A stretch of DNA of 64,000 nucleotides from a virus, in IMG/VR virus record IMGVR_UViG_3300045988_088194; one strand, written 5' to 3'. Positions 1,591-41,710 of the stretch are shown here, one piece after another (position 1 is the first letter of the stretch; each line of letters opens with the position of its first letter). Both the position numbers and the translations under genes were made by a program. The notes beneath the pieces are model-generated. The model searched no databases. It was given only the letters and a program-made list of their open reading frames with translations, and had not been told where the DNA came from.

Positions 1591-1605
1591 AATGTTTGGG
1601 AAAAA

Positions 1606-1702
1606 GGGGCTGTAGTACCTTAAGCCTTACCTGAGCCCCTGAACCTTTCAGGTGACAGACCATTGGGTAATTCCATAGGAGTGCAGTAGTAAGGCTTTTT
1701 AT
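1606..1702 (+). promoter_or_regulatory. structured intergenic element (competing stems ending in a T-run); possible terminator/attenuator or processing site
   Basis: Stems read by eye: AGGGGCT 1605-1611 / AGCCCCT 1634-1640; ACCTGA 1629-1634 / TCAGGT 1648-1653; AAGCCTTAC 1622-1630 / GTAAGGCTT 1689-1697 followed by TTTTTAT. The first and third stems cannot both form without a pseudoknot. Confidence 0.25.
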
Positions 1703-1714
1703 AAAGAAAAAAAA

Positions 1715-2017
1715 ATGAATGAAACGAGCAATGCTATAATTGATAATATACTCAGCCAGTATACAAAGCCAATAGAAGAAGTTCTCCATGGTTGGATTAT
1801 TCTTATAGATGGTCAGGTATGGAAATCTCCTGCAAGAGGTTTTATATTTAACTCAAGGAAACAGGCAGTTGCTGCTTTTTATAATGGGATGAGGTGGAGA
1901 GTAACAAGCTCTATGGGAAGAGCTGAAGGCAATGACCACTATTGGAGTGACACTTCAATGTATTGGGCAAGGTTTAAGGAAGCCTTGAAAGATAGAATGG
2001 AAATAAGACAGATTTAA
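1715..2017 (+). CDS. hypothetical protein (100 aa)
   Basis: ORF behind an A-rich leader and first gene of a tightly packed same-strand operon. No motif recognised. Confidence 0.5.
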   Translation: MNETSNAIIDNILSQYTKPIEEVLHGWIILIDGQVWKSPARGFIFNSRKQAVAAFYNGMRWRVTSSMGRAEGNDHYWSDTSMYWARFKEALKDRMEIRQI

Positions 2018-2018
2018 C

Positions 2019-2300
2019 ATGGAAACAAGAGAATATCTATTGAATCGGGGAGAAAAGGCAGAGAAAGATATGGTTAATCATCCAGACCATTATAATATCA
2101 ATGGCATGGAATGTATTGATGTTATGGAAAAACTGTTTGGTATAGATTGGACATATCATTTCTGTGTACTTAATGCTTTCAAATATCAGTTTAGGTTTAA
2201 TAATAAAGGCAAGGCTCAGGAAGATTTGAGAAAGGCTGCATGGTATAATACTAAGGCAGCAGAACTTCTTGAGAAGATGGAGGGAGAAGACAATGGCTGA
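2019..2300 (+). CDS. DUF3310-like small protein
   Basis: NHPDHYNINGMECIDVMEKLF...LNAFKYQFRFNNKGKAQEDLRKAAWY fits my memory of the DUF3310 pattern (HY..g.E.IDvi...N.iKY..R...KG..EDL.KA..Y). It starts 1 nt after the upstream stop. Confidence 0.6.
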   Translation: METREYLLNRGEKAEKDMVNHPDHYNINGMECIDVMEKLFGIDWTYHFCVLNAFKYQFRFNNKGKAQEDLRKAAWYNTKAAELLEKMEGEDNG

Positions 2301-2982
2301 ATACCAGAAAATACAGACACTATTTCTCAGGGATGATAAGAACATTATCATTCCTGACCAGTTCACTTATCCAGAGTTTGAGTATCTTAAAGATAATAAA
2401 TGGGAGTGTACTGAGAAGATTGATGGAACCAACATTAGAATAGAACTTGACTTCTATGTCCATGATGATGGAGTAAAAGAGGTAAATGTCAATTTCAGAG
2501 GAAGAACTGATAAGGCTAATATACCTGAACATTTGTACAGAAAGCTTAAAGAACTGTTTGACAATGTTGATTGGTTTAAGATATTTGATATCACAGGTAC
2601 CACATCCATTACCCTCTATGGTGAAGGCTATGGAGCCAAGATTCAGAAAGGAGGTAACTACATAAGTTCTGATGTAGATTTTATCCTCTTTGATGTTAAA
2701 GTTGGTAAATGGTGGCTGCAAAGGGATGCTGTTGAAGATATTGCAGATGAACTCAACATCAAAGTAGTCCCTCTTATAGGATATATGACTATCCCTGAGG
2801 CAATTGAGTATGTCAAGAAAGGCTTTAAGTCTACTATTGCAGAGAATGAGGATTATGATGCTGAAGGTCTTGTTCTTAAGACTCCTACAGGACTCCTGAG
2901 AAGGAATGGAGAAAGGCTTGTAACCAAAATCAAGACAGTTGACTTCAGAAAATACAGAGATAGTCAAGTGATGAAATCATGA
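2293..2982 (+). CDS. ATP-dependent RNA ligase-like nucleotidyltransferase (stand-alone adenylyltransferase domain)
   Basis: Covalent nucleotidyltransferase motifs: KIDGTN (motif I, KxDG), ILFDV (III), TLYGEGYG (IIIa), EGLVLK (IV), LVTKIKTVDF (V). There is no OB domain. I moved the start to ATG 2293 (MAEYQK), which overlaps the upstream stop as ATGGCTGA; the track start 2269 would overlap by 32 nt. Confidence 0.75.
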   Translation: MAEYQKIQTLFLRDDKNIIIPDQFTYPEFEYLKDNKWECTEKIDGTNIRIELDFYVHDDGVKEVNVNFRGRTDKANIPEHLYRKLKELFDNVDWFKIFDITGTTSITLYGEGYGAKIQKGGNYISSDVDFILFDVKVGKWWLQRDAVEDIADELNIKVVPLIGYMTIPEAIEYVKKGFKSTIAENEDYDAEGLVLKTPTGLLRRNGERLVTKIKTVDFRKYRDSQVMKS

Positions 2983-3167
2983 AGCAGTGGACATCAAGAG
3001 AGTTTCTAAGGATGCTTAGAAAGAATGGATATACTTACAGCAGACATAATGGGGACCATCATATCTATGTAAGTGAGGGAGGAAGGCATATATCTGTACC
3101 TCAGAAACTTGAGTGTGTCATTGCAAGAAGACTAATTAAAGAATATAATTTGAATATTGAACTATGA
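2979..3167 (+). CDS. HicA-like (YcfA family) small RNA-binding/mRNA interferase-fold protein
   Basis: 62 aa. REFLRMLRKNGYTYSRHNGDHHIYVSEGGRHISVPQ matches the HicA pattern (..l.k.Gf...r..GsHh.y....g....vP.h). The start overlaps the ligase stop as ATGA (2979-2982). Confidence 0.65.
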   Translation: MKQWTSREFLRMLRKNGYTYSRHNGDHHIYVSEGGRHISVPQKLECVIARRLIKEYNLNIEL

Positions 3168-3406
3168 GTTTAGGAGGATACCCATTGGGAGCTGACCAGG
3201 ACCCAAGAGCTCCCTGGAAAGAAAAAGATGTCTTTGTAGATGCTACAGTAAGTATCACATATCATAAGACTATAAGGGTCAAACTTAATGAGCATTATGA
3301 TACTCCTGACCTCTACAATGCTGCACAGGATGAGGTCTATGATGATGTAAAAGCACTTTCTGACAATGGCTGGTATGAGGATGAATTTGAAGTGGTAGAA
3401 GAGTAA
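3164..3406 (+). CDS. small acidic protein (80 aa), unknown; positional candidate partner of the HicA-like gene
   Basis: ATGA overlap with the HicA-like stop (3164-3167). Strongly acidic C-terminal half (DEVYDDVKALSDNGWYEDEFEVVEE). No HicB, HTH or RHH motif recognised. Confidence 0.5.
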   Translation: MSLGGYPLGADQDPRAPWKEKDVFVDATVSITYHKTIRVKLNEHYDTPDLYNAAQDEVYDDVKALSDNGWYEDEFEVVEE

Positions 3407-3987
3407 TGGCAACAGTTTATTTCATATCAGATGCTCACTTTGGACATAAGAACTTGAGTGAGAGATTTAGAGGAATGTCTGTTGAAGAGTCAGATGAATT
3501 GTTAATCAGGAATTGGAATAACAAGGTAAAGAAGAAAGATGATATTGTCTATTATCTTGGTGACTTTTCAATGGATGCTCCTGAACTTCTTGAGAAGTAT
3601 CTTGACAAATTGAATGGAAAGATATACATCATAGGAGGAAACCATGATACAAGAAGAGTGTGTACCAAATTCAAAGAGTTAGGCATTACTGTACTTGGAT
3701 GTATGGAATATAAGGGCTATATGCTCACTCATATGCCTGTAGATAGAAGGATGATTAAGGAAGGTCCATTCAGAAGATATAGAGGAAACATACATGGGCA
3801 TATCCATGCTTATGAACTTGTTTCCCCAGACTATATTTCTGTGGCTGCTGACCTCAATAATCTTACTCCTATGACTTTTGAGGAGATTATTGAGAAGCAG
3901 AAGAAGAAACATCAATTGAAAGTCAAACTCAAGAACTTCCTTATGTATGTTACCTTTTTGTTTAACAAAACTTTTAAGAAGAAATGA
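3406..3987 (+). CDS. calcineurin-like metallophosphoesterase
   Basis: Ordered metallophosphoesterase motifs: SDAHFGH (DxH), LGDF (GDxx), GGNHD (GNHD/E), HGHIH (GHxH). TAATG overlap with the upstream gene. Confidence 0.8.
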   Translation: MATVYFISDAHFGHKNLSERFRGMSVEESDELLIRNWNNKVKKKDDIVYYLGDFSMDAPELLEKYLDKLNGKIYIIGGNHDTRRVCTKFKELGITVLGCMEYKGYMLTHMPVDRRMIKEGPFRRYRGNIHGHIHAYELVSPDYISVAADLNNLTPMTFEEIIEKQKKKHQLKVKLKNFLMYVTFLFNKTFKKK

Positions 3988-4670
3988 GAATATTGGTTAT
4001 AGGTGACATACATGGTCACAATGGCTGGGATAAAATAGTCTTCAAGGAGGATTGGGATAAAGTAGTCTTCCTTGGAGATTATTTTGACAATTATAAGAAT
4101 ACTCCTGGAAAAGAGCAAGTTACTAACTTCAAGGAGATACTTGCAATGAAGGCTACTCACCCTGATAAGGTAGAACTTCTTTATGGAAATCATGACCATT
4201 CCTATCTTAACAAGGAGATGTGCAGTGGTTATAAATGGCAAAATCAACTTATTTATGAAGAAGTACTTAAGGGAGCTAAGGATAAAGGTTGGCTTAAACC
4301 TGTGTATATTCATGATGACATTATCTTCTCTCATGCAGGAGTGTCTTCATATTGGCTCAAAGAGGTAGCCCAATTAGCACATCCTCAGGATATTACTTGG
4401 GAGAATGTTCCTCTTGATAAGTTCAACTTCAATGGACTTACTGGATACAATTCATTTGGAGATACACCTTCACAGAGTCCTATCTGGATTAGACCTACAT
4501 CTCTTCTGCAATACCCTATTGATGGATACAGGCAGGTAGTAGGACATACTCATATGGGGGCTCCTGTGAATAGAGATGGAGTATGGTTCAATGATATGAT
4601 GCCTAAGTATTATATCATTATTGAAGATGGCAACATAGAATTTAAGGAGAATAAATATGAGATTAATTAA
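3984..4670 (+). CDS. metallophosphoesterase, lambda-phosphatase/ApaH-like layout
   Basis: GDIHGH, FLGDYFD, GNHDHSY, SHAG, VGHTH occur in the canonical order. ATGA overlap with the upstream gene (3984-3987). Confidence 0.8.
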   Translation: MRILVIGDIHGHNGWDKIVFKEDWDKVVFLGDYFDNYKNTPGKEQVTNFKEILAMKATHPDKVELLYGNHDHSYLNKEMCSGYKWQNQLIYEEVLKGAKDKGWLKPVYIHDDIIFSHAGVSSYWLKEVAQLAHPQDITWENVPLDKFNFNGLTGYNSFGDTPSQSPIWIRPTSLLQYPIDGYRQVVGHTHMGAPVNRDGVWFNDMMPKYYIIIEDGNIEFKENKYEIN

Positions 4671-5499
4671 ACCTTCTTATGAAATATGGGAGCAGGAGTC
4701 TGGTCTTGAAGGTGTCTATAAGATGATAGAGAAGGTAGGTAGAGTCTGTTATAAATCAGAAGATAAGATAGCAGAAGGAACTGCAAAGTCTTTTGTAGAC
4801 AGACTTATGAAATCAGGACATGGTGCTATGTTGGAACATGGTACTATATATCTGATGATTCCAAATGACCACCAAGCATATAATTTCTTCGGAGATAATT
4901 GGGTAAGAGACACCTATGGTGCATCTCCTTATTCTTCAGTAGTTTGGGATAGTGATAAAATTTACATTACAACTAACTTAAGAGTGCTGGTGGAGAATGG
5001 TTGGCTTGATGACTTGAAGTATCTTTGTGAACCTACTGAGTATCATGTTAAGAGAGTTACTGTACACTTTGTATGTGATAGAGGAGTATCCCATGAATTT
5101 GTAAGACATAGAGTGTTTAGCTTTGCTCAGGAGAGTACAAGATATTGCAATTATTCTAAGGATAAGTTTGGTAATGAAGTTACTTTCATTGAACCTTGCT
5201 GGTACAATACCTCTAAATCAAATGACCTTGCTGATGAGTATTTTATTAATAGTTTAAAAGATGCTGAACGGTTATATTTTAATCTATTAGACAATGGGTG
5301 GAAACCTCAGGAAGCAAGAGCAGTATTACCTAATGCTTTGAAGACAGAACTTGTAATGACAGGTTTTGTGGATGAATCTGGATGGATAAACTTCTTTAAT
5401 CTTAGAGCATTGGGGACTACAGGTGCACCACATCCTCAGGCTAAAGAACTTGCTGAACCACTCTTTGAAGAGTTTAAAGCCAAAGGGCTTATTAAATAA
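4657..5499 (+). CDS. thyX: FAD-dependent thymidylate synthase ThyX
   Basis: ThyX signature RHRVFSFAQESTRY (RHRxxSxxxxSxRY) and appropriate size. 14-nt overlap with the upstream gene. Confidence 0.9.
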   Translation: MRLIKPSYEIWEQESGLEGVYKMIEKVGRVCYKSEDKIAEGTAKSFVDRLMKSGHGAMLEHGTIYLMIPNDHQAYNFFGDNWVRDTYGASPYSSVVWDSDKIYITTNLRVLVENGWLDDLKYLCEPTEYHVKRVTVHFVCDRGVSHEFVRHRVFSFAQESTRYCNYSKDKFGNEVTFIEPCWYNTSKSNDLADEYFINSLKDAERLYFNLLDNGWKPQEARAVLPNALKTELVMTGFVDESGWINFFNLRALGTTGAPHPQAKELAEPLFEEFKAKGLIK

Positions 5500-5516
5500 T
5501 CACTAAAAAAAAAACA

Positions 5517-6149
5517 ATGACAACATTTATGAATAGGGATAAATTAAAAGTTGGTAATATACTTTCTGAGACAACTCACTACAAGGTAGTAGCAAAGTTT
5601 GGAGACCATATTGACTGTATTCTTCAGGAAAGTGGAGATAAAGTAAGTCTTGGAAATGACTATGCCTTGAAGTATTGTTCTTCAGGAGATGTCTATGAAG
5701 AAATCAAGGAGGTAACCAAGGAGGATAAGGCTGATGGAACTCCAGGTATAAGGTCTATCTTTGAGAACATCCATTCTTCTGAGGTATTTACAGTGGTATT
5801 CAAAAAGCAGGATAAAAAGAAGACCAGAAAGCAGATAGCAGAGGAGAAGAACTCTCAGATAAATGAGGCTATTGCTATGATTAACAGAGCCAAAGAGCAG
5901 AAGAAGTCTATGGCTGTAGCCTATACTGAAGCTCTTCAGTTCATTCAGAACAATCCTGTTCAGGATTATATTGAAGGAGAGAGTAGAACTCTCAGAGGAT
6001 ACAAGATTCAGTTCCAATCAAGAGATGGAAGATATGACTGTGTGGATATGGACATTGAAAGAACTGATACTGAGAGTGGTATAAGACCAGTTAATATCAA
6101 CACCATCAGCTCTTTAATCTATAAAGGTGTAAAATATGTAGTGAAATAA
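5517..6149 (+). CDS. hypothetical protein (210 aa), central K/E-rich helix
   Basis: Last ORF of the operon, followed by a clear terminator. No motif recognised. Confidence 0.55.
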   Translation: MTTFMNRDKLKVGNILSETTHYKVVAKFGDHIDCILQESGDKVSLGNDYALKYCSSGDVYEEIKEVTKEDKADGTPGIRSIFENIHSSEVFTVVFKKQDKKKTRKQIAEEKNSQINEAIAMINRAKEQKKSMAVAYTEALQFIQNNPVQDYIEGESRTLRGYKIQFQSRDGRYDCVDMDIERTDTESGIRPVNINTISSLIYKGVKYVVK

Positions 6150-6192
6150 AAATATACATAGAAATTCACTTACGGAATAATTAGATTTATTG

Positions 6193-6222
6193 GGGAGACT
6201 AATAAAGTCTCCCTTATTTTTT
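6193..6222 (+). terminator. rho-independent terminator after the replication/nucleotide operon
   Basis: GGGAGAC (6193-6199) / GTCTCCC (6207-6213) stem with a 7-nt loop, followed by TTATTTTTT. Confidence 0.7.
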
Positions 6223-6274
6223 CTTTATAAAATTAGTAATCAAATTAGAGAGTATGTAGATTAATACTTAATAA

Positions 6275-6306
6275 CTTGGTTAATTAAAATTAAATACTTA
6301 TCTTTG
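6275..6306 (+). promoter_or_regulatory. Bacteroidota-type promoter candidate for the giant ORF
   Basis: CTTG (6275-6278), then 20 nt, then TATCTTTG (6299-6306, fits TAnnTTTG), 26 nt upstream of ATG 6333. It lies in a 183-nt AT-rich intergenic region. Confidence 0.55.
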
Positions 6307-6332
6307 TCCTAAATCTAAATTATTATAATAAT

Positions 6333-9300
6333 ATGGCTTGTGTAAACACAAAGGAAAAAAGTTTTAAAGAGCTAGTTTCTAAATATGGTGCTTCATCAGG
6401 AACTGTAGAAAATGCCATTAAAATTTATATGGATAAAAATAATCTTGAGACCTATGATACTAATTCTCAAGATTTCATAGACCATATGGATTCTTATTTT
6501 CAGCTTAAAAGCAGTAATTTCTACTCTTCTAAAGGTAAGTACAATAGAGCTCATGCTCTTTGGGAAAAAATAAATCCTACACAAAATGTAGCAGATATAA
6601 AGACTGCTACTAAAGAGTATAATGCTCTTGTTGAAATATTTGGAGAAAATAATGTTACTGTTTTTGAAACTTCAGATGGAGGATTTAGAGTTAGGGCAGC
6701 TGAGCCTATATTTGGTGACGGTATTACTTCAGATAAGAAATTATTGAAGGAAATGTCTGACATTCTTTCTAAAGCTCCTAGAGATAAAAATGGTAATCTA
6801 TTAGCTCCTAATGGTAAAAAGTCTAATTTAACTGAAAGACAATATGCTCAAGTAAGAACTAAAGCTTTTAAAGAGTGGTTTGGTGATTGGGAAACATTAG
6901 CAGAAGGACATAATAAAAAACTTAATTTACCTGATAAACCATCTGGTCTTACTGATACTTGGATAAAAGATAATATAGTAGAATTTAAAGGTTTATCTAC
7001 GGGAACTAAATATAATATAGGCTATTCTGGTGGAAGATATTTTATCGTTATAAATATTAATGGAATTAATGTTCCATTCTATAAATCCTCAGGTTTAGGT
7101 GGAAAAAAGAATGTTGAAGCAGGTAAATGGTATCCATTTTTTGGGATATCTAAAAAAGGATGGTTAAATAAGACTACTGAGGAGGAAATAAACAACTACT
7201 ATAATAGTCAAGTACTTGAATTAATTTCTAATAAACTAGATTCATTATTTAATAATGAAGACTATGGTATAGAAATAGTAAATGGTATTCCAGTAAAGAA
7301 GGGTAAACAAGCTAATAACGCTATAGATTTAAACTTTACAGACGGAGAAAAAGTCATAAATAAAGACCTTAATCCTACTGAAAATCATAAAGATAATACT
7401 GTAAATATAGTAAATAGTAATATTGAAAAAGTTAAAAGGAGTATATCTTATACTACTTTAAATAATAAAGTCTCAAAAGTAGTAGATGAAAATGGTGAAC
7501 CTTTGGTTGTTTATCATTATACAGATAATGAAAGTCTGACTAAATTTAGTACAGAGTTTGATAATTATTTCTCAAAGGAAGGTGGTACTAAGAAAGCTAT
7601 ATTCTTTACAACAGATAATGTTGTACCTGGTAGTGAAGATAACTTCTTAACTAATAGAAAAGCTAAGCTGGCATTATTCTTAAATATAAAAAACTTAGAA
7701 GAGTTTCATGGTACTAAAGAAGATTTGCATAAACAAGGAACTTCTTATAGAGAAATAGTAAATAAATCTTCTGAAAGAGCAGGTCTTGAAAATGGTATAG
7801 TATTTACTGGTTTTGATGATAACAAGAAGGAGAATCAAACTATATATGTTGTTCATAATCCAAATCAAATTAAATCAGCTACTAGTAATACAGGAGCTTT
7901 TTCTAAAATTAATGATAGAATAGACGATTTTGAAAGTAATGTAAAAGTTACTGTTGAATATACTCCTATAGGAAAAAGTAGACAAACTTATACTATTAGA
8001 GGGAACAAAATCTTTAATAAAGAAGGTAAAGAAGTCTTTAAGACAGACAGTGTAGATAGAAACAAGATTTTTGCCAATCTTGCAGTACAGCAAGGTAGAG
8101 CAGTAGTAGTAAATCATAAGAATAAAGAGTATGTTGTAAACAACAGAAATCAGATTATCTCTGTTACTACTGGTAAAATGATGCAGTGGGATGAAAAGAA
8201 TGGAGATAGAAATGCAATCATTAAAGCTGCTCAGGAAAAGTTTAGTAAAAACAAACCCTCTGAAAGTATTCAAAAATCTGCGTCTTTTAATTGGGGAAGA
8301 ACTTCAGATAATAATTATGAAGTATCTTCAAAAGGAGATAAAAGATTTTCTGCTCTTAATGCTACCTTTAAGAAAGGTACTGTTATAGATGGAGTAGATG
8401 TAGGAGGAATGACCATTGAAGATGTATATCAGAAGGTCATTAAAAAGAGTGGTAAAGGTAAAGCTCCTGCTGTAGATAGTAAGTTAAATATTTCTTACAG
8501 AGTAAGTACCGAAGGAATTACTAAGCAATATGGAGTAGTAATAGATAAAAATTTAAAAAGAAATTATAGTGAATGGCAAAATGCTAATCCAAATGGTATA
8601 GTTGCGTATAGAGTTAATTATAGTAAATACAATACCCCTGAAGAAGCACAAGCTGGTAGAATAGGTAATCCATTTTCTGAAGGTATAGGACAAGCTAATA
8701 AAGGGGAAGATACTGTACAAAAGTTCTTTATTTGGCTTACTACTGGAAATAACTTTGGTAATCCAAAAGCTACTGAAGAATATAGACAAGCCATTCTTCA
8801 TAAACTAATTAGTACTCCAAAAGGAACTAATATATTATATTATACTGAACTCAATAGACCATCTCATGCAACTGTATTAGGTTATTTAATTAATCATAAG
8901 GAATTTATAACAAACTATAAAGATAGTGCAGAAGATTTCTCTTATACTGAAGGTTATTTACCATTGTGGCAAGAATGGGCTAAACAAAACCCTGAATTAA
9001 TAGAGGAACTAAGAACTAAAGCAGCAGGTAAAACTCTTACTGACCAGTTTGCTAATACAAGAGTAAGTCAGGCAAGAGCTTTGGCTGATATTCTTAATTC
9101 TACTAATACTAAGTCAGAAACTATAGAAGAAGCTCCTATATTTGAAGAAGAAAATAATAATATGCAATCTGCTAAAGAACTTGTAGATAGGATGATAGCA
9201 GATTCAAGAGAGCATATTAAATTTAACAAAGAGGACCATTCCTATATAGTAGATGGAAAAAAGGCTGATACCAGTGTTACTCAGTTTATACATGGTAAGA

Positions 9301-12300
9301 AAGACCTTGGTCAATGGGGAACAGCAGCCTCTGCCATAGGTACAACAGCAGACAGTGTCACAAGAGACTTCTTCAAAGGTGAGCTGAAAGATGAATATCC
9401 AAACTTGTCAGATAAGGACCTTTCCTTTCTCAAGCATGACTTGAAGAGCCTTAGGAACTTCTTTGACAAGAAGTTTGGAAAGGACAAATATACAGTAGTG
9501 ACTGAAGAGTTCCCAATAGCCTCAAAGTATACATACACTGACAAGGATGGAAAACTTAAGGGAGGTGTAATGGCAGGAACTATGGATATGCTTATCTATG
9601 ATAATGAAGGTAACTTCTATATCTATGATATGAAGACTTCAAGAAGTGGTCTCAATGAGAACAAGGTTGCTGGATATGCAAAGCAGCTGACACTCTATAA
9701 GGCTATTCTTGAGGCCAATTATCCAGAGCTGAGAGGCAAGATAAAGGAGCTTAAACTTATTCAGTTTAGGGTAGGTTATCCACAACCTGGAGCTGACTTC
9801 ATCTATTCAGCAACTGATGGTCAGTTATATCTTAATAATGTTCCTATTCAGGAGACTGAAGACTACTATGCACCTCACTTGGATTTTACTGGAAACAGTC
9901 TTGACAATCAGGTGCTTGTTCCAGTAGAACCTGTAAGTATGGATATTCACTTTGAAGGTATGACTGAAGATGAGGTAGAATCAATGAGGGAGGAAACAAG
10001 AGAGCCAGAGAGTACTGAGTTCTCACAGAATGAAGTAGATAGCCAGAGAGATAACCTCTATGGAAACCCTCTGCTTTCAGCTACAGAGAGAACATTCCTT
10101 GCTAACAATGTAATGAGTCTTACTTCCTTTATTGTTACTCACTTACAGACAAATCCTGAGGCTAATCAGTTCTATTTTGGAGACCAATTCAGTAGGCTCA
10201 ACTTTACTAAGATGTCAAGAGAAGACATCATAAGTACTGTTGGGGTAACAAAGATATTTGAGTATATAAAGGAAAGATGGTATAATCCTGATAACAGGAC
10301 TGACATTGATGATTTTGATACTCTTGACAAGTTACAGATAGCCTATGACAACTGGGCAGCCCTTGTGAAGTCTGCCTATGCAAAACTTATAACTCTTGAA
10401 GGTGTTACAGTAGTTGCTGCAAGACCTGATGAAATAAGTAGAGAGGATATTGAGACCTCTTTTCAAGAACAGATAGATGCTGGTGAACTTGAAGAGAAAG
10501 AAAGGGAGTATTGGCAGCTTGGTATAAGAAACATATCAGCAAGGTCAAGTCTTAGTGGTGATATAAGAAGGTCATTTGAAAGGCTCTTTGCCATAGACTC
10601 CAATGGAAATCCTATAAAGGACAAGTTTGGTTTCAATTTTGATACTTTTGTAGATTCTGGTGTTGCTGTAAATAGTATCCTTGAATGGACCAGAACTGCT
10701 ACAACTGTAGAAGAGATGGAGGAGATACTTGATGGAATGAAGGACTCTTATCCTTGGCTTAACTCTATCCTCAATAAGATAAAGGAAGAACCTTTCAGGT
10801 CTCAATTCTTTCAGAATTTCAGAAAGGACTTTACACAGTATAGTATTGTAACTGTGGAAAGGGATGAGAAAGGAAATAAGGTATATCAGACTCAAATAAT
10901 TAACACTAAGGGAGCATCACAGTCTGTACTTGATGAGATTACTACCTATTATAATTCAGGACTTATGCAGAACATCATAATCACTGCTGATGGTATTGAA
11001 GGTAAGGGTAGGGTTAATGTCAAGAATGTTGAGGCTCTTAAGGCTGAGAAGGACAAAATAGTATCTGACCTTAAGGGTGCATTCACTGCTGTGAGAAAGG
11101 AAGTATATAATAACACTCTCAAGAACTCTGTACCTAAGATTACAAAACTCCTAAATGAGTTAGGAATAAGAGTAGATGCCAAGACAGTCTCTAATACCAT
11201 AGTTGGTAAAGAAAGACCTAAGGACATTAATAACTCCCCAGTAATGAAACTTCTGAGTGAAATGTCCTATATGTTTGATGCCTTGCTATCAAAGAAGGAC
11301 TCTACCTCATATAATCCTCTTCTTAAAGGGGAGGAGAAGAACATCTATGGAAATTATAAATCTATAGTTGGACTTATGAGCAAGTATATTCAGGACAGTA
11401 TTGAGTCATCATCCTATGAGAATGGCAAGATGCACTACTCTTTTGTAACTCCTTCTTATATGGGAAAACTTATTCTCAATCTGAAAGATGCCATTGGCAA
11501 TCCAAGCAAGTTCAATTCATTTATGGAAGAGAATTATGGGTCATATAGATGGTTCAGGGAAGAGGATGGAACTTGGAATAATGCATGGCTTGAGTTGATT
11601 TCTGAAAGTAAGGATGCAAGACAAGGCTTGGAACATAAAGTTCAGTTGTCATTTGATGGAACTCCTTACACTGATTTGAGTGAGTTGGGATATACTCTAT
11701 CTCTTATGAGTGAGTACTTCTATGATAAGGGAAGTAGAGGAAAAGGTCCTCAGTGGGCATGGTACAGAGTTCCTATGCTTTCAAATAAACCTTCTTCCGA
11801 ATTTATAAGGTTCAAGAGATACTCAGGTTCTGAATATAAGAGAAGAATCAAGAGGGGACTCAAAATGGTTCTCAATCAGGAAGTTCTTAGGTTCAGAGCT
11901 GTACTTGAAAGAAGTGTGAATGCAAACATTGAACCTATCTCAAACTTTGATATAAGTTCTAAAGTCCTGAAGAAGAATCCTCAGATTGAGGCTAAGATGA
12001 GAGCTGGAGAACCTCTTACTCATGATGACCTTGTGAAGAATGGAAAACTTATAACTGCTGCAAGTGGAGCTTCCTTTAAGTTCCTTGAAGCTTTCAATCA
12101 AAATATAGTTGAAGGTGATGAGCTTGGAATGATGCTTATAGACAAGATAAATGGTGTCAGTGTAAATGAGGATTCTTTTGACAAGTTAGTCAATCAGAAC
12201 CTTGATTCTTACATGGACATTATAGTAAGCAAGGAGATTTCACAGTGGGAGAAGATTGGTCTATTTGATACAGAGGAAGTCAGAAGGGGCGAAGATGTTG

Positions 12301-15300
12301 AAACAAGATATAAGTACATATCTAATCTTACAAGGTCATACTCAACTATAAAGAAAGAACTGTTTGGAAAGGAGAGAAGACTCTCCAAGGAACAGAAGTC
12401 TGAGATAATGCAGGTTATGGAGTCTGAGGCTAAGGCTAATCTTGAAGAGTATGTATGGAATGATATGTTTGCAACTATAAACATAATCCAACTTACTGCT
12501 ACAGACCTTGCCTATTACAAGAATGTAGAGGACTTCCAGAAGAGGTATGCTCAAGTCCATTCTCCTGCAATGAGATTGAATATAACTGCAAGGGATTCAA
12601 AGGGTAGACTCTATTCTGCTGATGGAATGGAAAGAACCATGTACATTACAGATTATGAGGTAGAGTCTGACATAATTCCTAATGTTGAAGAGATATTTGA
12701 CCAGAGGATTTCTTCAATCTCTGACCCTTCTGAAAAGGCTAACATGAAAATGATGAAGGACCTCATAGTTGATTCTTTCAGGAAGATTAATGTAGCAGAT
12801 GCTCAGGGGTATTCATCACCTACTTCATACAGAAAGAAGATGGGTATGATGGGTAAGTGGTCTGATGAAATGGAAGAGGCTTATAATAGAATCAAGAGAG
12901 GAGACTTCAATGTCAATGACCTTGGTGTTGTCTGGCAGCCCTTAAAACCTTTTGTCTATTCCCAGATTAGGAAACCAGGAGGTTCAGATGCTCTTTCTGA
13001 ACTTAAGGTTCCTGTTCAGAACAAGAACTCTGAATATCTTCTCCTCCTTGCAGATGCACTTATGAGAGGGGGAAAGAAGCAGAGCAAACTTGCTGCTATC
13101 TTTGATTTCATGGAGGAATCTGCCTATGATGGCAGAGAGACCCAATTCAATCCAAAGACCAACACTTATGAGGTTGTAAAGGAAGGTACATACAATGGAA
13201 AGGGTATTGATACTGTCCAGTTTGAATCATCTGTGAAGTCAGGAAAGTCTGGAGTTGTGAACATAAATAAGGTAGAATCATATGAGGAAATTAAGAATAT
13301 CCTTAATGAGGCTACATATATCAATTCTGACAGAACTGCTTCTTCTGATAATAATAATGACAGATATAATGTCAATTACATCCATACAATCCCTTTTGAA
13401 GATTATGGCATTCAGCAGGAAGTTCCTGCCCACTTGGTAGACCATGAGCAGCTCATGGGTTCTCAGATGAGAATACTTAGTATAAGTGACATTACCCCAG
13501 GTACTGAGTTCCAGATAGGAGATGAACATCTTAAGAGTGATGAACTTATCAGTGAGTATCAGAATCTTATAAAAGAAAACATTGAGCAGAGTTTTGAAAG
13601 ACTGTGTAAAGATTTCAAGGTCAGAGGAACAAGGCTTGAAAGGAATAAGGCACTTGAGAAAATACTTCAGGAAGCTATTGAAAAGGACCAGAGGTATGGT
13701 GCTGATATACAGAGAGCTTGTTCTCTTGATAAGAATGGAGAATTTATAATCCCACTTAGTGACCCTATACAGTCTATCAGAATACAGCAACTTCTCAATT
13801 CTATTATAAAGAGCAGGATAAACAAGCAGAAGGTAACTGGTGGTCCAGTAGTTCAGGCTTCAGTATTTGGTATGTCAGATGACCTTTCAATAAGATTCAA
13901 GGACAAAGATGGAAATCTCATTGAAACTTATAGTGAGTTTGTAGAGAAGAGGGGTTTCTCAAAGGATAAATCTTCAGCAGCTAAATATAAGAAGTTCATT
14001 AATGACAAACAGGCTTCTGTGGCATACTTTGAGTGCTATATGCCTATTCCTTCTTCTGAACTTGAAGAAGCTCTTACAAGATATGATAAGGATGGACATG
14101 CATACATAATATCAATGGAAGAAGCAGTTAAGGAAGGTATAATTCCTGAAGAAATGAGAAAGGCTATTGGATATAGAATTCCTACAGAGGATAAGTATTC
14201 TATGGCTCCTCTCTATATAAAAGGATTTCTTCCTAAAGCAGCTGGAGAGGCAGTGATGCTCCCTAAAGAGATTACTCTTCTTTCAGGTTCTGACTTTGAT
14301 ATTGACAAGCTGTATGTGATGCTTAAGACTTTCACTCTCAAGAGGAGAACTGATTGGGGTAAACTTGAAAAAGATATTCTCAAATCAAGCAAGGCTAAAG
14401 GAGAAGAGAGAAAGAAGAGAAAGGAAGCCTTGAGGATAGTCATTGAGCAGATTAAGGCTGGAATGGAGTTTAGTGAAGGCACCTTTGAAATGGCTGTGCA
14501 TGACTATTATTATGACCATAGAGACAGGTATGATAGAGCTTCTTTTGAACTGTCTGATGGTGGTACTGATAGAAGGAACAACAGGATATTTGACCTTCAG
14601 TGGGCTGTTCTCACTAACCCTGACACAATGAGCAAGATGTTTAATCCTGGTTCATTTGATGTACAGAAGAAGACTGCAAGAATTGTAAGGATACTTCAGG
14701 AGACAAAGGGTCATACCTATCAGGAGTTGAGCAAGCTTAATCTTGACCAGCTTGATGAAATACTTGACTCTTCAACTGACAGGAATATCATCTACTCAAC
14801 TTCTCAGGTGTACTTCCATAAGCAGAATATGACTGCTGGCAAGTTGATTGGTATATTTGCTAATAATAACACCAGTCACGCATTTATTTCTATGCAGGGA
14901 ATAGACTTAAAGTTAGGAGATGACCTTAAGTTTACATTTGATGGAGTCACAGTAGATGAGAATCAAAATAATAGATTGGACCCACTGAAAGGAAAAAATG
15001 GTAGTTTAATTAGTAAAACTATTGCAGGTTTTCTTGCAGCCTCTGTGGATGCTGTGAAGGACCCAGTACTTAACTTTATGAATCTTAATACATTTACTTC
15101 TGGACCAGCAATGGTTCTGGCAAGACTTGGTTTTGATTCTGACAGTATAGGTCTGCTTCTCTCTCAGCCTATTATAAGAAGGGTGACTGATGAATACTTC
15201 AGGAGGAACAATGAGGGTTACATCTCAGCTGAGGACCTAATTGATGAGTTTCTTGAACAGGACAAGAATGCAAAGGGTTATGAAAAGACTCTTACTCTAA

Positions 15301-16856
15301 CTAACTTCTCTAAAGAAGAACTTGCTCAGGGTATATCACTTAATAGTGATAAAGGAGACTTTCAGACAAGAGCACTTATTTTGTTCAAGAGGTTGTCAAA
15401 AATATCACAGGACTTTGGCACACTTACATTCCTTACTAAGTTCAACTCAGTAACCAATGCTGTTGGTCCAACCATTGCAGATACCCTTGTAATGAAGCAG
15501 AGATATAAGAAGTTCCTTGACAAGTTTGAGGATGGCAATGCAATCTTCTCAGATAATGCAAAGAATGTCATTCAGAACTCTCCTATTCTTGATGCCTTCT
15601 ATACAACCACAGTATCTGATACTGGGGCTTCTCAGTTGATATTCCAGGGATATTTCCCTCAGTACTCTGATAAATTCAATCAGGTTCTTGGAAAGTTCAG
15701 AGAAACCACAAAGGCAAATGTAGATAGCAAGACTATCAATTCCCTTGTCAGTGACTTTGTTCTTTACAAACTTACTGGAGGACCAAACCCAGTTCTTAAT
15801 TCAGATGGAAAGGTAAGAGAAGAGTTCATCCATGACTTTATAGTAGAGTTTAAGGAGAAGGCTGCTGGAATAGTAGATAATGAACTTATCAAGATTATAA
15901 CTGTTAAACCTTCTACTGGAAAATGTCCTGTTCCAACTTTGGAAGCAAAGACTGGTGGATATACTCAGGATGTTCAAGAGAGAGTAAGAGATGCTTGGAC
16001 AAATCTTATAACAAATGAAAGTACAAGAGACCTTGGAGTCAAACTATTCTTCTACAATATGTACAGAACAGGACTTTCATTCAGTCCTAAGACTTTCCTT
16101 CACCTTGCTTCAACTGATGTGAAACTTGCAATTCCAGGATATGTTGAAAGTATTAGGGATATCAATTATAATGACTCCTTTGATGTGAATGACTTCCTTC
16201 TTCAGTATAGAAGGAATCATACAGACAACTTCAGGGTTGTTCCTCATATAACACAGAGAAAGGGAATTGCATCTTCTATCACTGAAGATAGAGCTGGTAA
16301 CAGGAAGATAACCTTCACATTTGCTTCAGACAGTGCTTCTTCACAGTTCATTGTCAAGAAGGTAAAAAGGGGAAGTGGAAAAGTATCTACTAAAGAGACA
16401 ATAGCTGCTCCTGTTATCCTCTATAATGATAAGGTGTATTTCAATCCTGAAATCAACTCAGATGGTTCTATTACTTATACTGAAACAACAACTCTTGGTA
16501 ATACCAACAACTTCCTTGAATATGATATGAATGAATCTGGAAGTGAGATAAGAACTTCTATTCAGAGAACTTCTGAAGAAGATGTACATGAGAAGGAGGT
16601 TCAGGAGTCTCCAGCAAGAGAAGTTCCTGAGGATGATGGAGAGACTGAAGCAGTAGAGCTCTCAGAGACTGATATTGAGAATATACTCAGTGAGATATTT
16701 GATGAGGGTGAACTGGACAGTCTTATGACATCTCTTGTCAAAGGACAATCAAAGAAGGTAGACAAGTATAAGAGTATGATTGAAGAGCACACAGACTCTG
16801 AGACTGCTTCTAAGGTTATGAAGAAAATGATAGATATTGTAAAGGGAATTTGCTAA
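6333..16856 (+). CDS. giant multidomain protein (3,507 aa): polyvalent-protein-like N-terminal modules + PD-(D/E)xK nuclease signature + crAss-type two-barrel RNA polymerase
   Basis: Single uninterrupted ORF. Motifs are listed in the sub-features below. The key RNAP evidence is a beta-prime-like DPBB loop YRIPTEDKYSMAP...LLSGSDFDIDKLYVML. Confidence 0.8.
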   Translation: MACVNTKEKSFKELVSKYGASSGTVENAIKIYMDKNNLETYDTNSQDFIDHMDSYFQLKSSNFYSSKGKYNRAHALWEKINPTQNVADIKTATKEYNALVEIFGENNVTVFETSDGGFRVRAAEPIFGDGITSDKKLLKEMSDILSKAPRDKNGNLLAPNGKKSNLTERQYAQVRTKAFKEWFGDWETLAEGHNKKLNLPDKPSGLTDTWIKDNIVEFKGLSTGTKYNIGYSGGRYFIVININGINVPFYKSSGLGGKKNVEAGKWYPFFGISKKGWLNKTTEEEINNYYNSQVLELISNKLDSLFNNEDYGIEIVNGIPVKKGKQANNAIDLNFTDGEKVINKDLNPTENHKDNTVNIVNSNIEKVKRSISYTTLNNKVSKVVDENGEPLVVYHYTDNESLTKFSTEFDNYFSKEGGTKKAIFFTTDNVVPGSEDNFLTNRKAKLALFLNIKNLEEFHGTKEDLHKQGTSYREIVNKSSERAGLENGIVFTGFDDNKKENQTIYVVHNPNQIKSATSNTGAFSKINDRIDDFESNVKVTVEYTPIGKSRQTYTIRGNKIFNKEGKEVFKTDSVDRNKIFANLAVQQGRAVVVNHKNKEYVVNNRNQIISVTTGKMMQWDEKNGDRNAIIKAAQEKFSKNKPSESIQKSASFNWGRTSDNNYEVSSKGDKRFSALNATFKKGTVIDGVDVGGMTIEDVYQKVIKKSGKGKAPAVDSKLNISYRVSTEGITKQYGVVIDKNLKRNYSEWQNANPNGIVAYRVNYSKYNTPEEAQAGRIGNPFSEGIGQANKGEDTVQKFFIWLTTGNNFGNPKATEEYRQAILHKLISTPKGTNILYYTELNRPSHATVLGYLINHKEFITNYKDSAEDFSYTEGYLPLWQEWAKQNPELIEELRTKAAGKTLTDQFANTRVSQARALADILNSTNTKSETIEEAPIFEEENNNMQSAKELVDRMIADSREHIKFNKEDHSYIVDGKKADTSVTQFIHGKKDLGQWGTAASAIGTTADSVTRDFFKGELKDEYPNLSDKDLSFLKHDLKSLRNFFDKKFGKDKYTVVTEEFPIASKYTYTDKDGKLKGGVMAGTMDMLIYDNEGNFYIYDMKTSRSGLNENKVAGYAKQLTLYKAILEANYPELRGKIKELKLIQFRVGYPQPGADFIYSATDGQLYLNNVPIQETEDYYAPHLDFTGNSLDNQVLVPVEPVSMDIHFEGMTEDEVESMREETREPESTEFSQNEVDSQRDNLYGNPLLSATERTFLANNVMSLTSFIVTHLQTNPEANQFYFGDQFSRLNFTKMSREDIISTVGVTKIFEYIKERWYNPDNRTDIDDFDTLDKLQIAYDNWAALVKSAYAKLITLEGVTVVAARPDEISREDIETSFQEQIDAGELEEKEREYWQLGIRNISARSSLSGDIRRSFERLFAIDSNGNPIKDKFGFNFDTFVDSGVAVNSILEWTRTATTVEEMEEILDGMKDSYPWLNSILNKIKEEPFRSQFFQNFRKDFTQYSIVTVERDEKGNKVYQTQIINTKGASQSVLDEITTYYNSGLMQNIIITADGIEGKGRVNVKNVEALKAEKDKIVSDLKGAFTAVRKEVYNNTLKNSVPKITKLLNELGIRVDAKTVSNTIVGKERPKDINNSPVMKLLSEMSYMFDALLSKKDSTSYNPLLKGEEKNIYGNYKSIVGLMSKYIQDSIESSSYENGKMHYSFVTPSYMGKLILNLKDAIGNPSKFNSFMEENYGSYRWFREEDGTWNNAWLELISESKDARQGLEHKVQLSFDGTPYTDLSELGYTLSLMSEYFYDKGSRGKGPQWAWYRVPMLSNKPSSEFIRFKRYSGSEYKRRIKRGLKMVLNQEVLRFRAVLERSVNANIEPISNFDISSKVLKKNPQIEAKMRAGEPLTHDDLVKNGKLITAASGASFKFLEAFNQNIVEGDELGMMLIDKINGVSVNEDSFDKLVNQNLDSYMDIIVSKEISQWEKIGLFDTEEVRRGEDVETRYKYISNLTRSYSTIKKELFGKERRLSKEQKSEIMQVMESEAKANLEEYVWNDMFATINIIQLTATDLAYYKNVEDFQKRYAQVHSPAMRLNITARDSKGRLYSADGMERTMYITDYEVESDIIPNVEEIFDQRISSISDPSEKANMKMMKDLIVDSFRKINVADAQGYSSPTSYRKKMGMMGKWSDEMEEAYNRIKRGDFNVNDLGVVWQPLKPFVYSQIRKPGGSDALSELKVPVQNKNSEYLLLLADALMRGGKKQSKLAAIFDFMEESAYDGRETQFNPKTNTYEVVKEGTYNGKGIDTVQFESSVKSGKSGVVNINKVESYEEIKNILNEATYINSDRTASSDNNNDRYNVNYIHTIPFEDYGIQQEVPAHLVDHEQLMGSQMRILSISDITPGTEFQIGDEHLKSDELISEYQNLIKENIEQSFERLCKDFKVRGTRLERNKALEKILQEAIEKDQRYGADIQRACSLDKNGEFIIPLSDPIQSIRIQQLLNSIIKSRINKQKVTGGPVVQASVFGMSDDLSIRFKDKDGNLIETYSEFVEKRGFSKDKSSAAKYKKFINDKQASVAYFECYMPIPSSELEEALTRYDKDGHAYIISMEEAVKEGIIPEEMRKAIGYRIPTEDKYSMAPLYIKGFLPKAAGEAVMLPKEITLLSGSDFDIDKLYVMLKTFTLKRRTDWGKLEKDILKSSKAKGEERKKRKEALRIVIEQIKAGMEFSEGTFEMAVHDYYYDHRDRYDRASFELSDGGTDRRNNRIFDLQWAVLTNPDTMSKMFNPGSFDVQKKTARIVRILQETKGHTYQELSKLNLDQLDEILDSSTDRNIIYSTSQVYFHKQNMTAGKLIGIFANNNTSHAFISMQGIDLKLGDDLKFTFDGVTVDENQNNRLDPLKGKNGSLISKTIAGFLAASVDAVKDPVLNFMNLNTFTSGPAMVLARLGFDSDSIGLLLSQPIIRRVTDEYFRRNNEGYISAEDLIDEFLEQDKNAKGYEKTLTLTNFSKEELAQGISLNSDKGDFQTRALILFKRLSKISQDFGTLTFLTKFNSVTNAVGPTIADTLVMKQRYKKFLDKFEDGNAIFSDNAKNVIQNSPILDAFYTTTVSDTGASQLIFQGYFPQYSDKFNQVLGKFRETTKANVDSKTINSLVSDFVLYKLTGGPNPVLNSDGKVREEFIHDFIVEFKEKAAGIVDNELIKIITVKPSTGKCPVPTLEAKTGGYTQDVQERVRDAWTNLITNESTRDLGVKLFFYNMYRTGLSFSPKTFLHLASTDVKLAIPGYVESIRDINYNDSFDVNDFLLQYRRNHTDNFRVVPHITQRKGIASSITEDRAGNRKITFTFASDSASSQFIVKKVKRGSGKVSTKETIAAPVILYNDKVYFNPEINSDGSITYTETTTLGNTNNFLEYDMNESGSEIRTSIQRTSEEDVHEKEVQESPAREVPEDDGETEAVELSETDIENILSEIFDEGELDSLMTSLVKGQSKKVDKYKSMIEEHTDSETASKVMKKMIDIVKGIC
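6781..6895 (+). other. domain: FGDWE-motif module typical of large polyvalent proteins
   Basis: DKNGNLLAPNGKKSNLTERQYAQVRTKAFKEWFGDWE. I recall this P-N-G-K-x-S-N-L...F-K-x-W-F-G-D-W-E string as recurrent in giant proteins of conjugative elements and phages. Recognised from memory only. Confidence 0.4.
7480..7910 (+). other. domain: ART-like module of polyvalent proteins (putative ADP-ribosyltransferase fold)
   Basis: VVDENGEPLVVYHYTDNESLTKFSTEFD...KKAIFFTTDN...LFLNIKNL...IYVVHNPNQIKSATSNTGAFS resembles the pattern (vvYHGT..f..Fd...g.YFt...l.ikNp...v....nQIKSA..N.G.F) that I associate with ART-PolyVal domains. Confidence 0.45.
8655..8900 (+). other. domain: DUF4326-like module
   Basis: GRIGNPFSEG...DTVQKFFIWLTTG...YRQAILHKLISTPKGTNILYYTELNRPSHATVLGYLINH follows the DUF4326 layout (GNPF...wl...L.gk.L.C.C....CHa.vL..l) but lacks the Cys residues. 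A YEVSSKGDKRFSALNA module precedes it (8285-8470). Confidence 0.4.
9235..9780 (+). other. domain: PD-(D/E)xK (RecB/Cas4/YqaJ-like) nuclease signature
   Basis: Ordered motifs: HSYIVDGKKADTSVTQF, GTTADSVTRDFF, MAGTMDML (GxxD), FYIYDMKTS (DxK), YAKQLTLYKAIL (QxxxY). Confidence 0.6.
14165..14330 (+). other. domain: beta-prime-like double-psi beta-barrel catalytic loop (DxDxD = DFDID, nt 14292-14306, aa 2654-2658)
   Basis: IGYRIPTEDKYSMAPLYIKGFLPKAAGEAVMLPKEITLLSGSDFDIDKLYVML parallels bacterial beta-prime NRAPTLHRLGIQAF...AFNADFDGDQMAVH (RxPT ... [AS]DFDxD). Confidence 0.65.
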
Positions 16857-16857
16857 T

Positions 16858-20937: not shown

Positions 20938-20943
20938 AAAAAA

Positions 20944-20968
20944 GAGGAAGTAGTTATTCTACTTCCTC
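20944..20968. terminator. bidirectional rho-independent terminator at the convergence of the two blocks
   Basis: GAGGAAGTAG / CTACTTCCTC 10-bp stem with loop TTATT, flanked by an A-run (20935-20943) and a T-run (20969-20977). Confidence 0.75.
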
Positions 20969-20992
20969 TTTTTTTTTCTTTTTGTAGTATCT

Positions 20993-41035: not shown

Positions 41036-41710
41036 CTATTGTTGTGAGCCCCAGACAGACTTTGCAATACTTACTGCCCTGCTGAGGATTGCTCTATGAA
41101 TTGCTGAACTTAATTTACAAGTTTGAGCTGTACTTATATCATTAATAGTCAGACCTTCTGATAAATTTTCAAGTATTATAGGTTCTGGTTTTGAAAGATA
41201 TCTTATTGTATAAGATATAATAGGATATTTACTTATTAATTCAACTTTATTGGTTCCACAGTCCAATCTTAATATCCTTCTTTCATTAGGTCCTCTAAAT
41301 GGGCTATTCTTAGTTCTATATAAAGTGTCTTGTGTTACTGGAACTACATCCACTTCTCTTTCTGTAGAACTTCCACATTTAAGGGAATTATCCTTTATTA
41401 TTGCCTTTTCTCCTGTCTTAAACCAAATGTCTGCATCTATATTAAAGAATACTGACCTTGAATCCAATCCATTACCTTCTACTTTAGTTGTATAAGTAAC
41501 TTGCTTAACCAAAGGACTTAAATAATCAGTGACTTCTTCAGTACTTTCAAAAGGACTTCCAAGTTTTCCTGAATAAATATCAAGAACCAGAGCTTCTTGT
41601 GCTTGGGTTAAGAACAAGCTTTTCTCATATTCTGACAGTCCTGGGGCTTGGTTTGACATTATGTTGTTGTACATAAGGTCAAATTCCAGTGAAAACTCTT
41701 GTGTTGTCAT
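41036..41710 (-). CDS. hypothetical virion-module protein (224 aa)
   Basis: ORF packed 1 nt from the upstream stop. No motif recognised. Confidence 0.65.
   Translation of the reverse strand: MTTQEFSLEFDLMYNNIMSNQAPGLSEYEKSLFLTQAQEALVLDIYSGKLGSPFESTEEVTDYLSPLVKQVTYTTKVEGNGLDSRSVFFNIDADIWFKTGEKAIIKDNSLKCGSSTEREVDVVPVTQDTLYRTKNSPFRGPNERRILRLDCGTNKVELISKYPIISYTIRYLSKPEPIILENLSEGLTINDISTAQTCKLSSAIHRAILSRAVSIAKSVWGSQQ

Follow-up and report, generated by a model that had tools for sequence, protein, structure and literature searches.

Results

A 64,000-nucleotide (nt) stretch of viral DNA (IMG/VR virus record IMGVR_UViG_3300045988_088194), which is referred to in its whole length as the window, harbors a giant open reading frame (ORF) of 3507 amino acids (aa) at positions 6333..16856 of the plus strand. 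As judged from its homologies, this ORF codes for the virion RNA polymerase of a crAss-like gut phage, extended at its N-terminus by predicted effector modules, and its AT-rich 5' end very probably represents an array of such modules which was recently recombined into the gene and replaced the native N-terminus of the polymerase. The evidence consists of a sharp composition step within the gene, a presence/absence polymorphism among close relatives, homology breakpoints, mosaic homologies of the segment to other crAss-like phages, and purifying selection on the encoded modules. All coordinates and amino acid numbers refer to the window and its giant ORF, and all features of this gene lie on the plus strand.

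A composition step within the giant ORF

An initial annotation of this DNA had claimed a sharp break in G+C content inside the giant ORF from hand counts on eight lines of 60 nt, all of which were identical on recount (16, 20, 17, 19, and 21 before the break; 31, 26, and 25 after it), and the claim was borne out by the full composition profile and a change-point test. The G+C content amounts to 0.301 in 6333-9299 and to 0.381 in 9300-16856, with values of 0.41 vs. 0.46 at first (GC1), 0.336 vs. 0.337 at second (GC2), and 0.156 vs. 0.348 at third codon positions (GC3). Because GC3 differs while GC2 is equal, the step consists almost purely of synonymous codon choice and not of amino acid content. 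The share of AAG among the lysine codons is 28% before the step and 71% after it, that of CAG among the glutamine codons 28 and 84%, and that of GAG among the glutamate codons 17 and 48%. The maximum-likelihood change-point for all bases is located at 9231-9263, and that for GC3 at codon 952 (nt 9189), with a 2-log-likelihood (lnL) support interval of 9156-9303 and a 2dlnL value of 142, whereas 500 codon shuffles yielded 5.6 on average and 18.2 at most; Fisher p is 1.6e-32. A significant step is thus obtained from the sliding-composition and codon-usage analysis that had been proposed as a check. Two further statements of the initial annotation concerned the position of the step: the reading frame, which was said to cross it, is indeed open continuously over 6333-16856, and the nuclease-like module, at the N-terminal edge of which the step was placed, is native.

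The low-GC3 region sets in with the start of the ORF, the preceding gene (5517-6149) having a normal GC3 of 0.36, and the AT-rich tract is the interval of 2.85 kb with the lowest G+C content in the whole 64 kb (0.29, z = -4). The segment therefore shows the atypical synonymous composition and the sharp boundaries of acquired DNA. Expression-linked codon bias is ruled out as a cause of the step, both codon regimes being present in one ORF.

Close relatives without the array

The AT-rich segment is missing from the closest relatives, in which both flanks are conserved at 96-98% nt identity. Two of the IMG/VR contigs concerned, L002 and L004, match the window in the same way, with about 98% nt identity over 5558-6336 and 96.8% over 9166-21400, and a third one, L003, is 95.7% identical over 9084-21401. 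Between the homologous flanks, the window contains about 2.8 kb and the three contigs about 0.45 kb; positions 6555-9083 have no counterpart in them, the distance between the aligned blocks being 205-215 bp there vs. 2.5-2.6 kb in the window. On the left side, the matches to L002 per 60 nt drop from 54-60 to 26-55 right after the ATG (6337), and the identity to L002 and L004 falls from about 98% to 63-90% per 60 nt at this point. On the right side, homology resumes at 9084 with L003 and at 9166 with L002 and L004, positions that fall in or immediately ahead of the GC3 change-point interval; this answers the comparison with related crAss-like genomes suggested in the initial annotation: the relatives join the window at these two positions and lack the AT-rich segment. 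The ORFs of the short forms are intact (2721-2735 aa), have a flat GC3 of 0.35-0.37, and lead from an N-terminal domain via a short linker directly into the nuclease-like region. The next outgroup, L005, with 61% aa identity in the polymerase, is also short with flat GC3. As judged from these alignments, the short form is the resident state in this immediate clade, and the 5' end of the giant ORF is a replacement.

The N-terminal domain shared with the relatives (aa 2-125, 6337..6707) is likewise affected, since it appears as an AT-rich, foreign allele from its divergence and GC3. It shows only 61% aa and 77% nt identity to that of L002, with a synonymous divergence (dS) of 1.2 as compared to 0.13 in the native part of the gene, and a GC3 of 0.18 vs. 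0.38 in L003 and L004, and is 93% identical at the nt level to the contig L261.

The metagenome contig L100 (OLSD01000074.1), a sibling of the window with 98.6-99% but not complete identity, shares its left junction and, in the same backbone, its array as far as 8257. Thereafter, it continues with the linker and a different cassette of 580 nt in place of positions 8258-9083 of the window, for which only a weak DprA/SLOG-like match was found (E 0.004, below the cut-off). Between the two genomes, dS is 0.024 in the array (6333-8256) and 0.055 in the native part of the same gene, which hints that the array may have spread by recombination after the backbones of the window and L100 had diverged.

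These values also bear on an opposite polarity, in which the long form would be ancestral, L002-L005 would have deleted the array jointly or independently, and the window would have acquired nothing recently. A loss would be mechanistically easy between the repeated linkers, and the distant relatives cr116_1 and L116 have long N-terminal extensions containing an ADP-ribosyltransferase (ART). However, a deletion predicts that aa 1-125 should be as similar to the relatives as the backbone is, instead of diverging to saturation (dS of 1.2 vs. 0.13). The foreign codon usage is confined to the long allele, whereas the short alleles match their own genomes; the four nearest relatives are all short, including the outgroup at 61%; and the dS of the array between the window and L100 is below that of the backbone. 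Ancestry of the long form is therefore considered very unlikely.

Origin of the AT-rich segment

The array is a patchwork of matches with 85-94% nt identity to pieces of crAss-like contigs with G+C contents of 26-34%. From left to right, positions 6209-6892 match L261 (93%), 6759-7901 match L260 (88%), 7857-8244 match L262 (94%), 7950-8474 match L101 (85%), 8289-9086 match L258/L259 (88%), and 8934-9148 again match L101 (93.5%). L260 has a G+C content of 0.26 and a GC3 of 0.10-0.18 in all of its genes. Closer relatives of the segment are thus found in other lineages of similar composition. Within the match to L260, aa 201-379 show a dS of 0.12 as compared to 0.5-0.8 in the neighboring parts, and this far closer relationship indicates an exchange at the level of single modules.

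The initial annotation had proposed separate searches of the segment against phage, plasmid, and integrative and conjugative element databases; searches of phage, plasmid, and bacterial sequences returned matches to crAss-like phages and no close ones to plasmids or bacteria. A megablast search of 5000-20000 against the INPHARED phages gave short patches only and no close relative, the plasmid search yielded one marginal match and nothing real, and the bacterial genomes contained distant relatives only, with at most 46% identity over long stretches. The cassettes are not plasmid-borne, as judged from the single marginal match, and an integrative and conjugative element or a prophage as donor is unsupported in view of the distance of the bacterial matches. 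Since the plasmids offer no real match and the bacteria only distant ones, as opposed to 85-94% identity to crAss-like contigs, the comparisons point to the gene pool of the crAss-like phages as the source, the AT-rich members of which match the composition of the insert. A crAss-type polymerase is encoded in the same ORF in 20 of 68 large cassette-bearing ORFs from metagenome contigs, and several IMG/VR contigs have the cassettes either fused to the polymerase likewise or in a neighboring giant ORF.

The interpretation in the initial annotation, a recent in-frame acquisition of a module of about 985 aa from an AT-richer donor, was thus supported, but refined. The acquisition from an AT-richer source stands, given the relatives without the segment, the breakpoint at the step, and the AT-rich matching contigs. 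It was not a pure insertion: about 0.45 kb gave way to about 2.8 kb, including a diverged N-terminal domain, and the AT-richer crAss-like matches form a patchwork without any single sampled donor.

AT-rich cassettes in other crAss-like phages

The composition difference between cassettes and polymerase extends beyond the window. In 12 of 12 cassette-bearing polymerases, the GC3 of the N-terminal extension is equal to or lower than that of the core, and for the ART module, 81 of 86 loci (not mutually independent) have a GC3 lower than the genomic background. The gap between extension and core is large in GC-richer genomes and nearly gone in AT-rich ones (L019, L027, L028, L037), and cr116_1 (Pamirivirus) shows the same step in a softer form. 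This pattern fits a shared pool of AT-rich cassettes with a turnover faster than their amelioration.

The generality of the bias may also be taken to suggest that local selection or mutation bias, e.g., related to translation rate or mRNA structure in effector arrays, keeps the region AT-rich regardless of its origin, and other accessory or surface genes of the window (head fibre, BACON-like) have a low GC3 as well. Such a bias explains neither the presence or absence of the segment among 97%-identical genomes nor the coincidence of the step with the homology breakpoint, and the near disappearance of the GC3 gap in AT-rich genomes is expected of a shared AT-rich pool, but not of a fixed local bias. 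As a substitute for foreign origin, local bias appears quite improbable; it may be a secondary contributor beside it.

The low-GC3 genes elsewhere in the window (0.18-0.23 vs. about 0.35) are all located on the minus strand at 47306-48985, 49052-50650, 51263-52507, and 41036-41710, and represent a head-fibre gene (PF25641), a weakly BACON-like gene, an unannotated ORF, and the gene for tail ring protein 3/4. These genes at 41-52 kb may represent additional cases of exchange among surface or accessory modules, or may reflect expression-linked codon bias. A dip milder than the polymerase step is seen at the N-terminus of another giant virion protein, where the first approximately 300 codons of the muzzle ORF (30497-36154; codons at 35250-36154, minus strand) have a GC3 of 0.16-0.24 vs. 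about 0.30 in the rest.

Independent contigs and the question of a chimeric assembly

Each junction of the segment is present in at least one independent assembly (L100, L101, L003). An assembly chimera, in which an AT-rich block from a co-occurring phage would have been joined in silico at shared sequence, has in its favor the position of the breakpoints in sequence which several crAss-like lineages have in common and at which assemblers can cross over. Against it, L100 as an independent and non-identical contig has the left junction and the contiguous array up to 8257 in the same backbone, L101 covers 7950-8474 and 8934-9148, and L003 covers the junction from linker to nuclease. In addition, the same upstream gene (GC3 0.32) recurs in L262, again with an AT-rich allele behind it (GC3 0.14), and the frame is open across every junction (6333-16856). 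Taken together, a chimera is extremely improbable. An exact search of IMG/VR for the junction 28-mer gave 0 matches.

Junctions and exchange points

The left homology anchor and breakpoint (6150..6336) comprises conserved intergenic DNA together with the opening codons of the giant ORF, as defined by the nt identity to L002 and L004. Across lineages, conservation extends over the intergenic DNA ahead of the gene and into the first 16 nt of the ORF; positions 6193-6330 are 86% identical to the contig L024, and 6209-6306 are 78% identical to L258/L259. The right breakpoint zone is the linker 'ADILNSTNTKSETIEEAPIFEEENNNMQSA' (9084..9165), which recurs as a cassette junction and is defined by the resumption of homology to L003, L002, and L004. 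Its core '..EEAP[IV]FE..' is found between differing pairs of modules in the window, L003, L024, L100, L101, L113, and L114. The start of the polymerase gene and the linkers are thus, by comparison of these contigs, recurrent exchange points, and we infer that they serve as recombination anchors.

The contig L024 (IMGVR_UViG_3300045988_093349) is 95% identical at the nt level to positions 1-3173 and 3983-4655 of the window and 86-88% identical to 5528-6330. Its polymerase is AT-richer and shares only 29% aa identity with that of the window, with a drop in G+C content from 0.37 to 0.32 where the gene begins, and it appears that the entire transcription gene was swapped at the same 5' boundary.

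Modules of the array

The N-terminal domain is followed by a short conserved module (aa 134-200, 6732..6932, '...LTERQYAQVRTKAFKEWFGDWE'), which corresponds to phrog_30335 and is widespread in polyvalent-type phage proteins. It shows 83-91% nt identity to many crAss-like contigs, with cr116_1 among them, and its tblastn matches in other phages lie in features annotated as DarB-like or methyltransferase. In a stretch of 127 nt (6769-6895), the window is 91% identical to cr116_1 (L001:7374-7500), although the two polymerases share only about 36% aa identity, so either a very recent exchange of this 'FKEWFGDWE' module or an unusual constraint at the DNA level may be assumed.

The next module (aa 201-379, 6933..7469) is without annotation or Pfam match, and has full-length homologues only in L100 and L260; the ratio of nonsynonymous to synonymous divergence (dN/dS) to L260 is 0.14. 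It is followed by the ART-PolyVal ADP-ribosyltransferase module (aa 380-530, 7470..7922), which was identified by a match of 57.8 bits to PF18760 (cut-off 31.2) with aa 385-523 spanning the whole profile (1-140 of 140 positions), and is 85-89% identical at the nt level to L020, L022, L060, and L260. An alignment of 29 ART representatives, taken as one per percent-identity level from 107 homologues, contains a 'SKVxDENGEPLVVYH' block with His395 conserved in at least 90% of the sequences, so that the conserved N-terminal, His-containing strand of the ART fold is retained, and the second aromatic position (Phe425) is also conserved.

Two further modules without annotation complete the array. The first of these (aa 531-642, 7923..8258, '...MMQWDEKNGDRNAIIKAAQEKF') is 94% identical at the nt level to L262 (7857-8244), 85% to L101, and 79% to L024, and runs straight into the linker in L100, L024, L113, and L114. 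The second one (aa 643-917, 8259..9083) is 88% identical at the nt level to L258/L259 and missing from the 99%-identical sibling L100, with a match to phrog_9995 at aa 873-924. An AlphaFold2 (AF2) model of aa 640-920 (pLDDT 83) gave no significant Foldseek match in PDB or BFVD; DUF4326 proteins recurred among the hits with E values of only 0.1-3, which is to be taken as a lead and not as a result. In L258 (ENA ERZ28573975 scaffold_10616), the homologue of aa 643-917 ends at a TAG codon (L258:1888), beyond which the same frame stays open for another 2.4 kb; this may indicate stop-codon read-through or recoding, or merely two genes.

Neither permissive searches of Pfam and NCBIfam nor a sequence search of the PDB recovered anything other than the ART and PD-(D/E)XK domains, leaving the remaining modules without a match. 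The dN/dS values of the cassettes of 0.14-0.23 indicate purifying selection, and the cassettes thus code for functional protein. An intein or another self-splicing insert was rejected, since no Hint or homing-endonuclease family was detected and the N-terminus is replaced, with no conserved site interrupted.

The resident virion RNA polymerase

The giant ORF matches annotated "putative RNA polymerase" genes of crAss-like phages (crAss001, cr116_1, cr128_1, and others) in tblastn with E = 0 and 32-35% identity over about 2000 aa. The homology begins at about aa 1238-1335, and the native two-barrel RNA polymerase core (10335..16856) contains the catalytic DFDID motif at aa 2664-2668 (nt 14322-14336). 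Since the same window encodes the crAss muzzle protein (PF25731, 1.4e-76), the tail ring protein 3/4 (PF25710), and the head fibre (PF25641), the homology, the motif, and the gene context together identify the ORF, as far as comparison allows, as the virion RNA polymerase of a member of the Crassvirales. The native region between array and core (9166..10334) contains a PD-(D/E)XK nuclease-like domain (PF12705 match at aa 1053-1147, nt 9489-9773; 29.2 bits, cut-off 22) and shows 96-97% nt identity to L002-L004 with a GC3 of about 0.35-0.44. An exact look-up of the 3507-aa protein retrieved no record, and a family scan (E <= 0.01) found no peptidase family in the ORF, zincin/MPTase included. The polymerase gene of the window is uninterrupted, whereas that of cr116_1 is split by an inserted ORF (L001:14635-15282; MT774389.1 47634-48281), for which the annotation gives similarity to a gene product of a Salmonella phage.

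Discussion

A mechanism of recombination, delivery into the host, and an effector role may be proposed from these observations. Very probably, the 5' end of the polymerase gene was exchanged in this lineage when another crAss-like phage recombined with it homologously between a point right behind the ATG (about 6337) and the linker before the nuclease-like domain (9084-9166), with about 0.45 kb of native sequence giving way to 2.8 kb. The new allele consists of an N-terminal domain that has diverged from the native one, followed by polyvalent-protein cassettes of about 800 aa with a predicted effector role, in the order of a short conserved module, an unannotated module, ART-PolyVal, and two more unannotated modules. 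The incoming DNA very probably retained the codon usage of AT-rich crAss-like phages (GC3 about 0.10-0.18) inside a genome with a resident GC3 of about 0.35, which gives rise to the composition step. The recombination was probably anchored at the conserved upstream region with the gene start and at the linkers between the cassettes.

The crAss polymerase is a component of the virion which is translocated into the host, as shown for phi14:2 gp66 (PMC7886860; bioRxiv 10.1101/2020.03.07.982082), and by homology to this protein, virion packaging and ejection are assumed for the polymerase of the window. If the polymerase is ejected together with the DNA, the attached cassettes would enter the host as early-acting effectors, with the ADP-ribosyltransferase possibly acting in the manner of T4 Alt. 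By analogy, the delivery of early host-modifying effectors attached to the ejected polymerase is the most likely role of the array.

Several points weigh against this reading of the locus. Cr116_1 and L116, with 37-40% aa identity in the polymerase, also have long ART-bearing N-terminal extensions, which means that gain and loss are recurrent and that the direction of the change is secure only within the immediate clade. Apart from L100, no sampled contig contains the whole array at more than 95% identity, and the donor is accordingly inferred rather than identified. The conclusion that a chimera is unlikely was drawn from a comparison of independent contigs. The AT bias could stem in part from the cassette pool itself and not from the genome of a particular donor, and the alignment of the 29 ART representatives allowed no assignment of an invariant acidic catalytic residue.

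Among the known systems, the gene is most readily compared to the polyvalent proteins (PMC5512222), with which it shares the combination of a virion RNA polymerase, an ART, a nuclease-like domain, and further modules in one giant polypeptide, domain combinations that vary among relatives, and a predicted delivery with the DNA at infection. The ORF contains ART, PD-(D/E)XK, and RNA polymerase domains together with at least four unannotated modules, the architectures differ among the window, L100, L003, L002, L024, and L101, and homologues of the cassettes adjoin Macro, NYN, SLOG/YAcAr, DprA-like, and T7-type RNA polymerase domains (Pfam). A zincin peptidase, which is frequent but not obligatory in polyvalent proteins, was not detected in the window ORF (E <= 0.01). 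In contrast to the polyvalent proteins described, the effectors form an N-terminal array that is polymorphic between genomes of about 97% identity. Head-packaged ARTs and fusions of ARTs to the N4 virion RNA polymerase (vRNAP) are known (Iyer et al., 2017; PMC5512222); the carrier described here is a two-barrel, crAss-type polymerase (DFDxD), whereas that of N4 is T7-like. The DFDID motif, the PD-(D/E)XK domain in a large protein of the transcription block, and the adjacent giant ORFs agree with the crAss-like polymerases (phi14:2 gp66; transcription gene block of Yutin et al., 2021, PMC7886860), but unlike its nearest relatives, the window copy is extended N-terminally by about 940 aa of foreign origin with a different codon usage.

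T4 Alt is a head-packaged ADP-ribosyltransferase that is injected with the DNA, an analogy drawn before (PMC5512222, PMC9503650), and the ART of the window would likewise be brought in by the virion at the onset of infection and be tied to early transcription. Alt is a separate protein from a different ART clade, whereas the ART of the window is predicted to be a covalent part of the polymerase. The swapping of alternative modules at conserved junctions, as seen from the window, L100, L003, and L002, and the AT-richness of the acquired modules relative to the core are also features of polymorphic toxins and of phage mosaicism. Unlike in polymorphic toxins, no silent store of cassettes is seen downstream, and exchange apparently takes place between co-infecting phages instead of drawing on cassettes stored within the genome. 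Our literature search returned nothing specific on ARTs fused to crAss polymerases. Note that phage mosaicism, polyvalent proteins, polymerase-ART fusions, and the AT-richness of acquired DNA are all established, and that the window adds an unusually clean, strain-resolved case of the crAss type.

A more far-reaching idea is that the N-terminus of the polymerase may be a dedicated, exchangeable "payload rack," with the linker as recombination handle and possibly as processing site, on which co-infecting phages would swap anti-host effectors from a common AT-rich pool at strain-level timescales. This is put forward tentatively, as we consider it rather doubtful. If true, it would resemble the polymorphic toxin systems, but with exchange from phage to phage and delivery by the ejected polymerase.

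Few viruses of the human gut are more abundant than the crAss-like phages, whose means of handling the diverse defenses of the Bacteroidales are poorly understood. The locus bears on this question by showing a gain and exchange of predicted injected effectors at the strain level, since genomes of about 97-99% identity carry either no cassettes or different ones. It yields defined recombination junctions and provides natural, isogenic-like pairs (window, L100, L002/L003) available for testing the roles of the cassettes, and the GC3 step may be used as a simple signature for spotting payload swaps in other metagenomic phage genomes.

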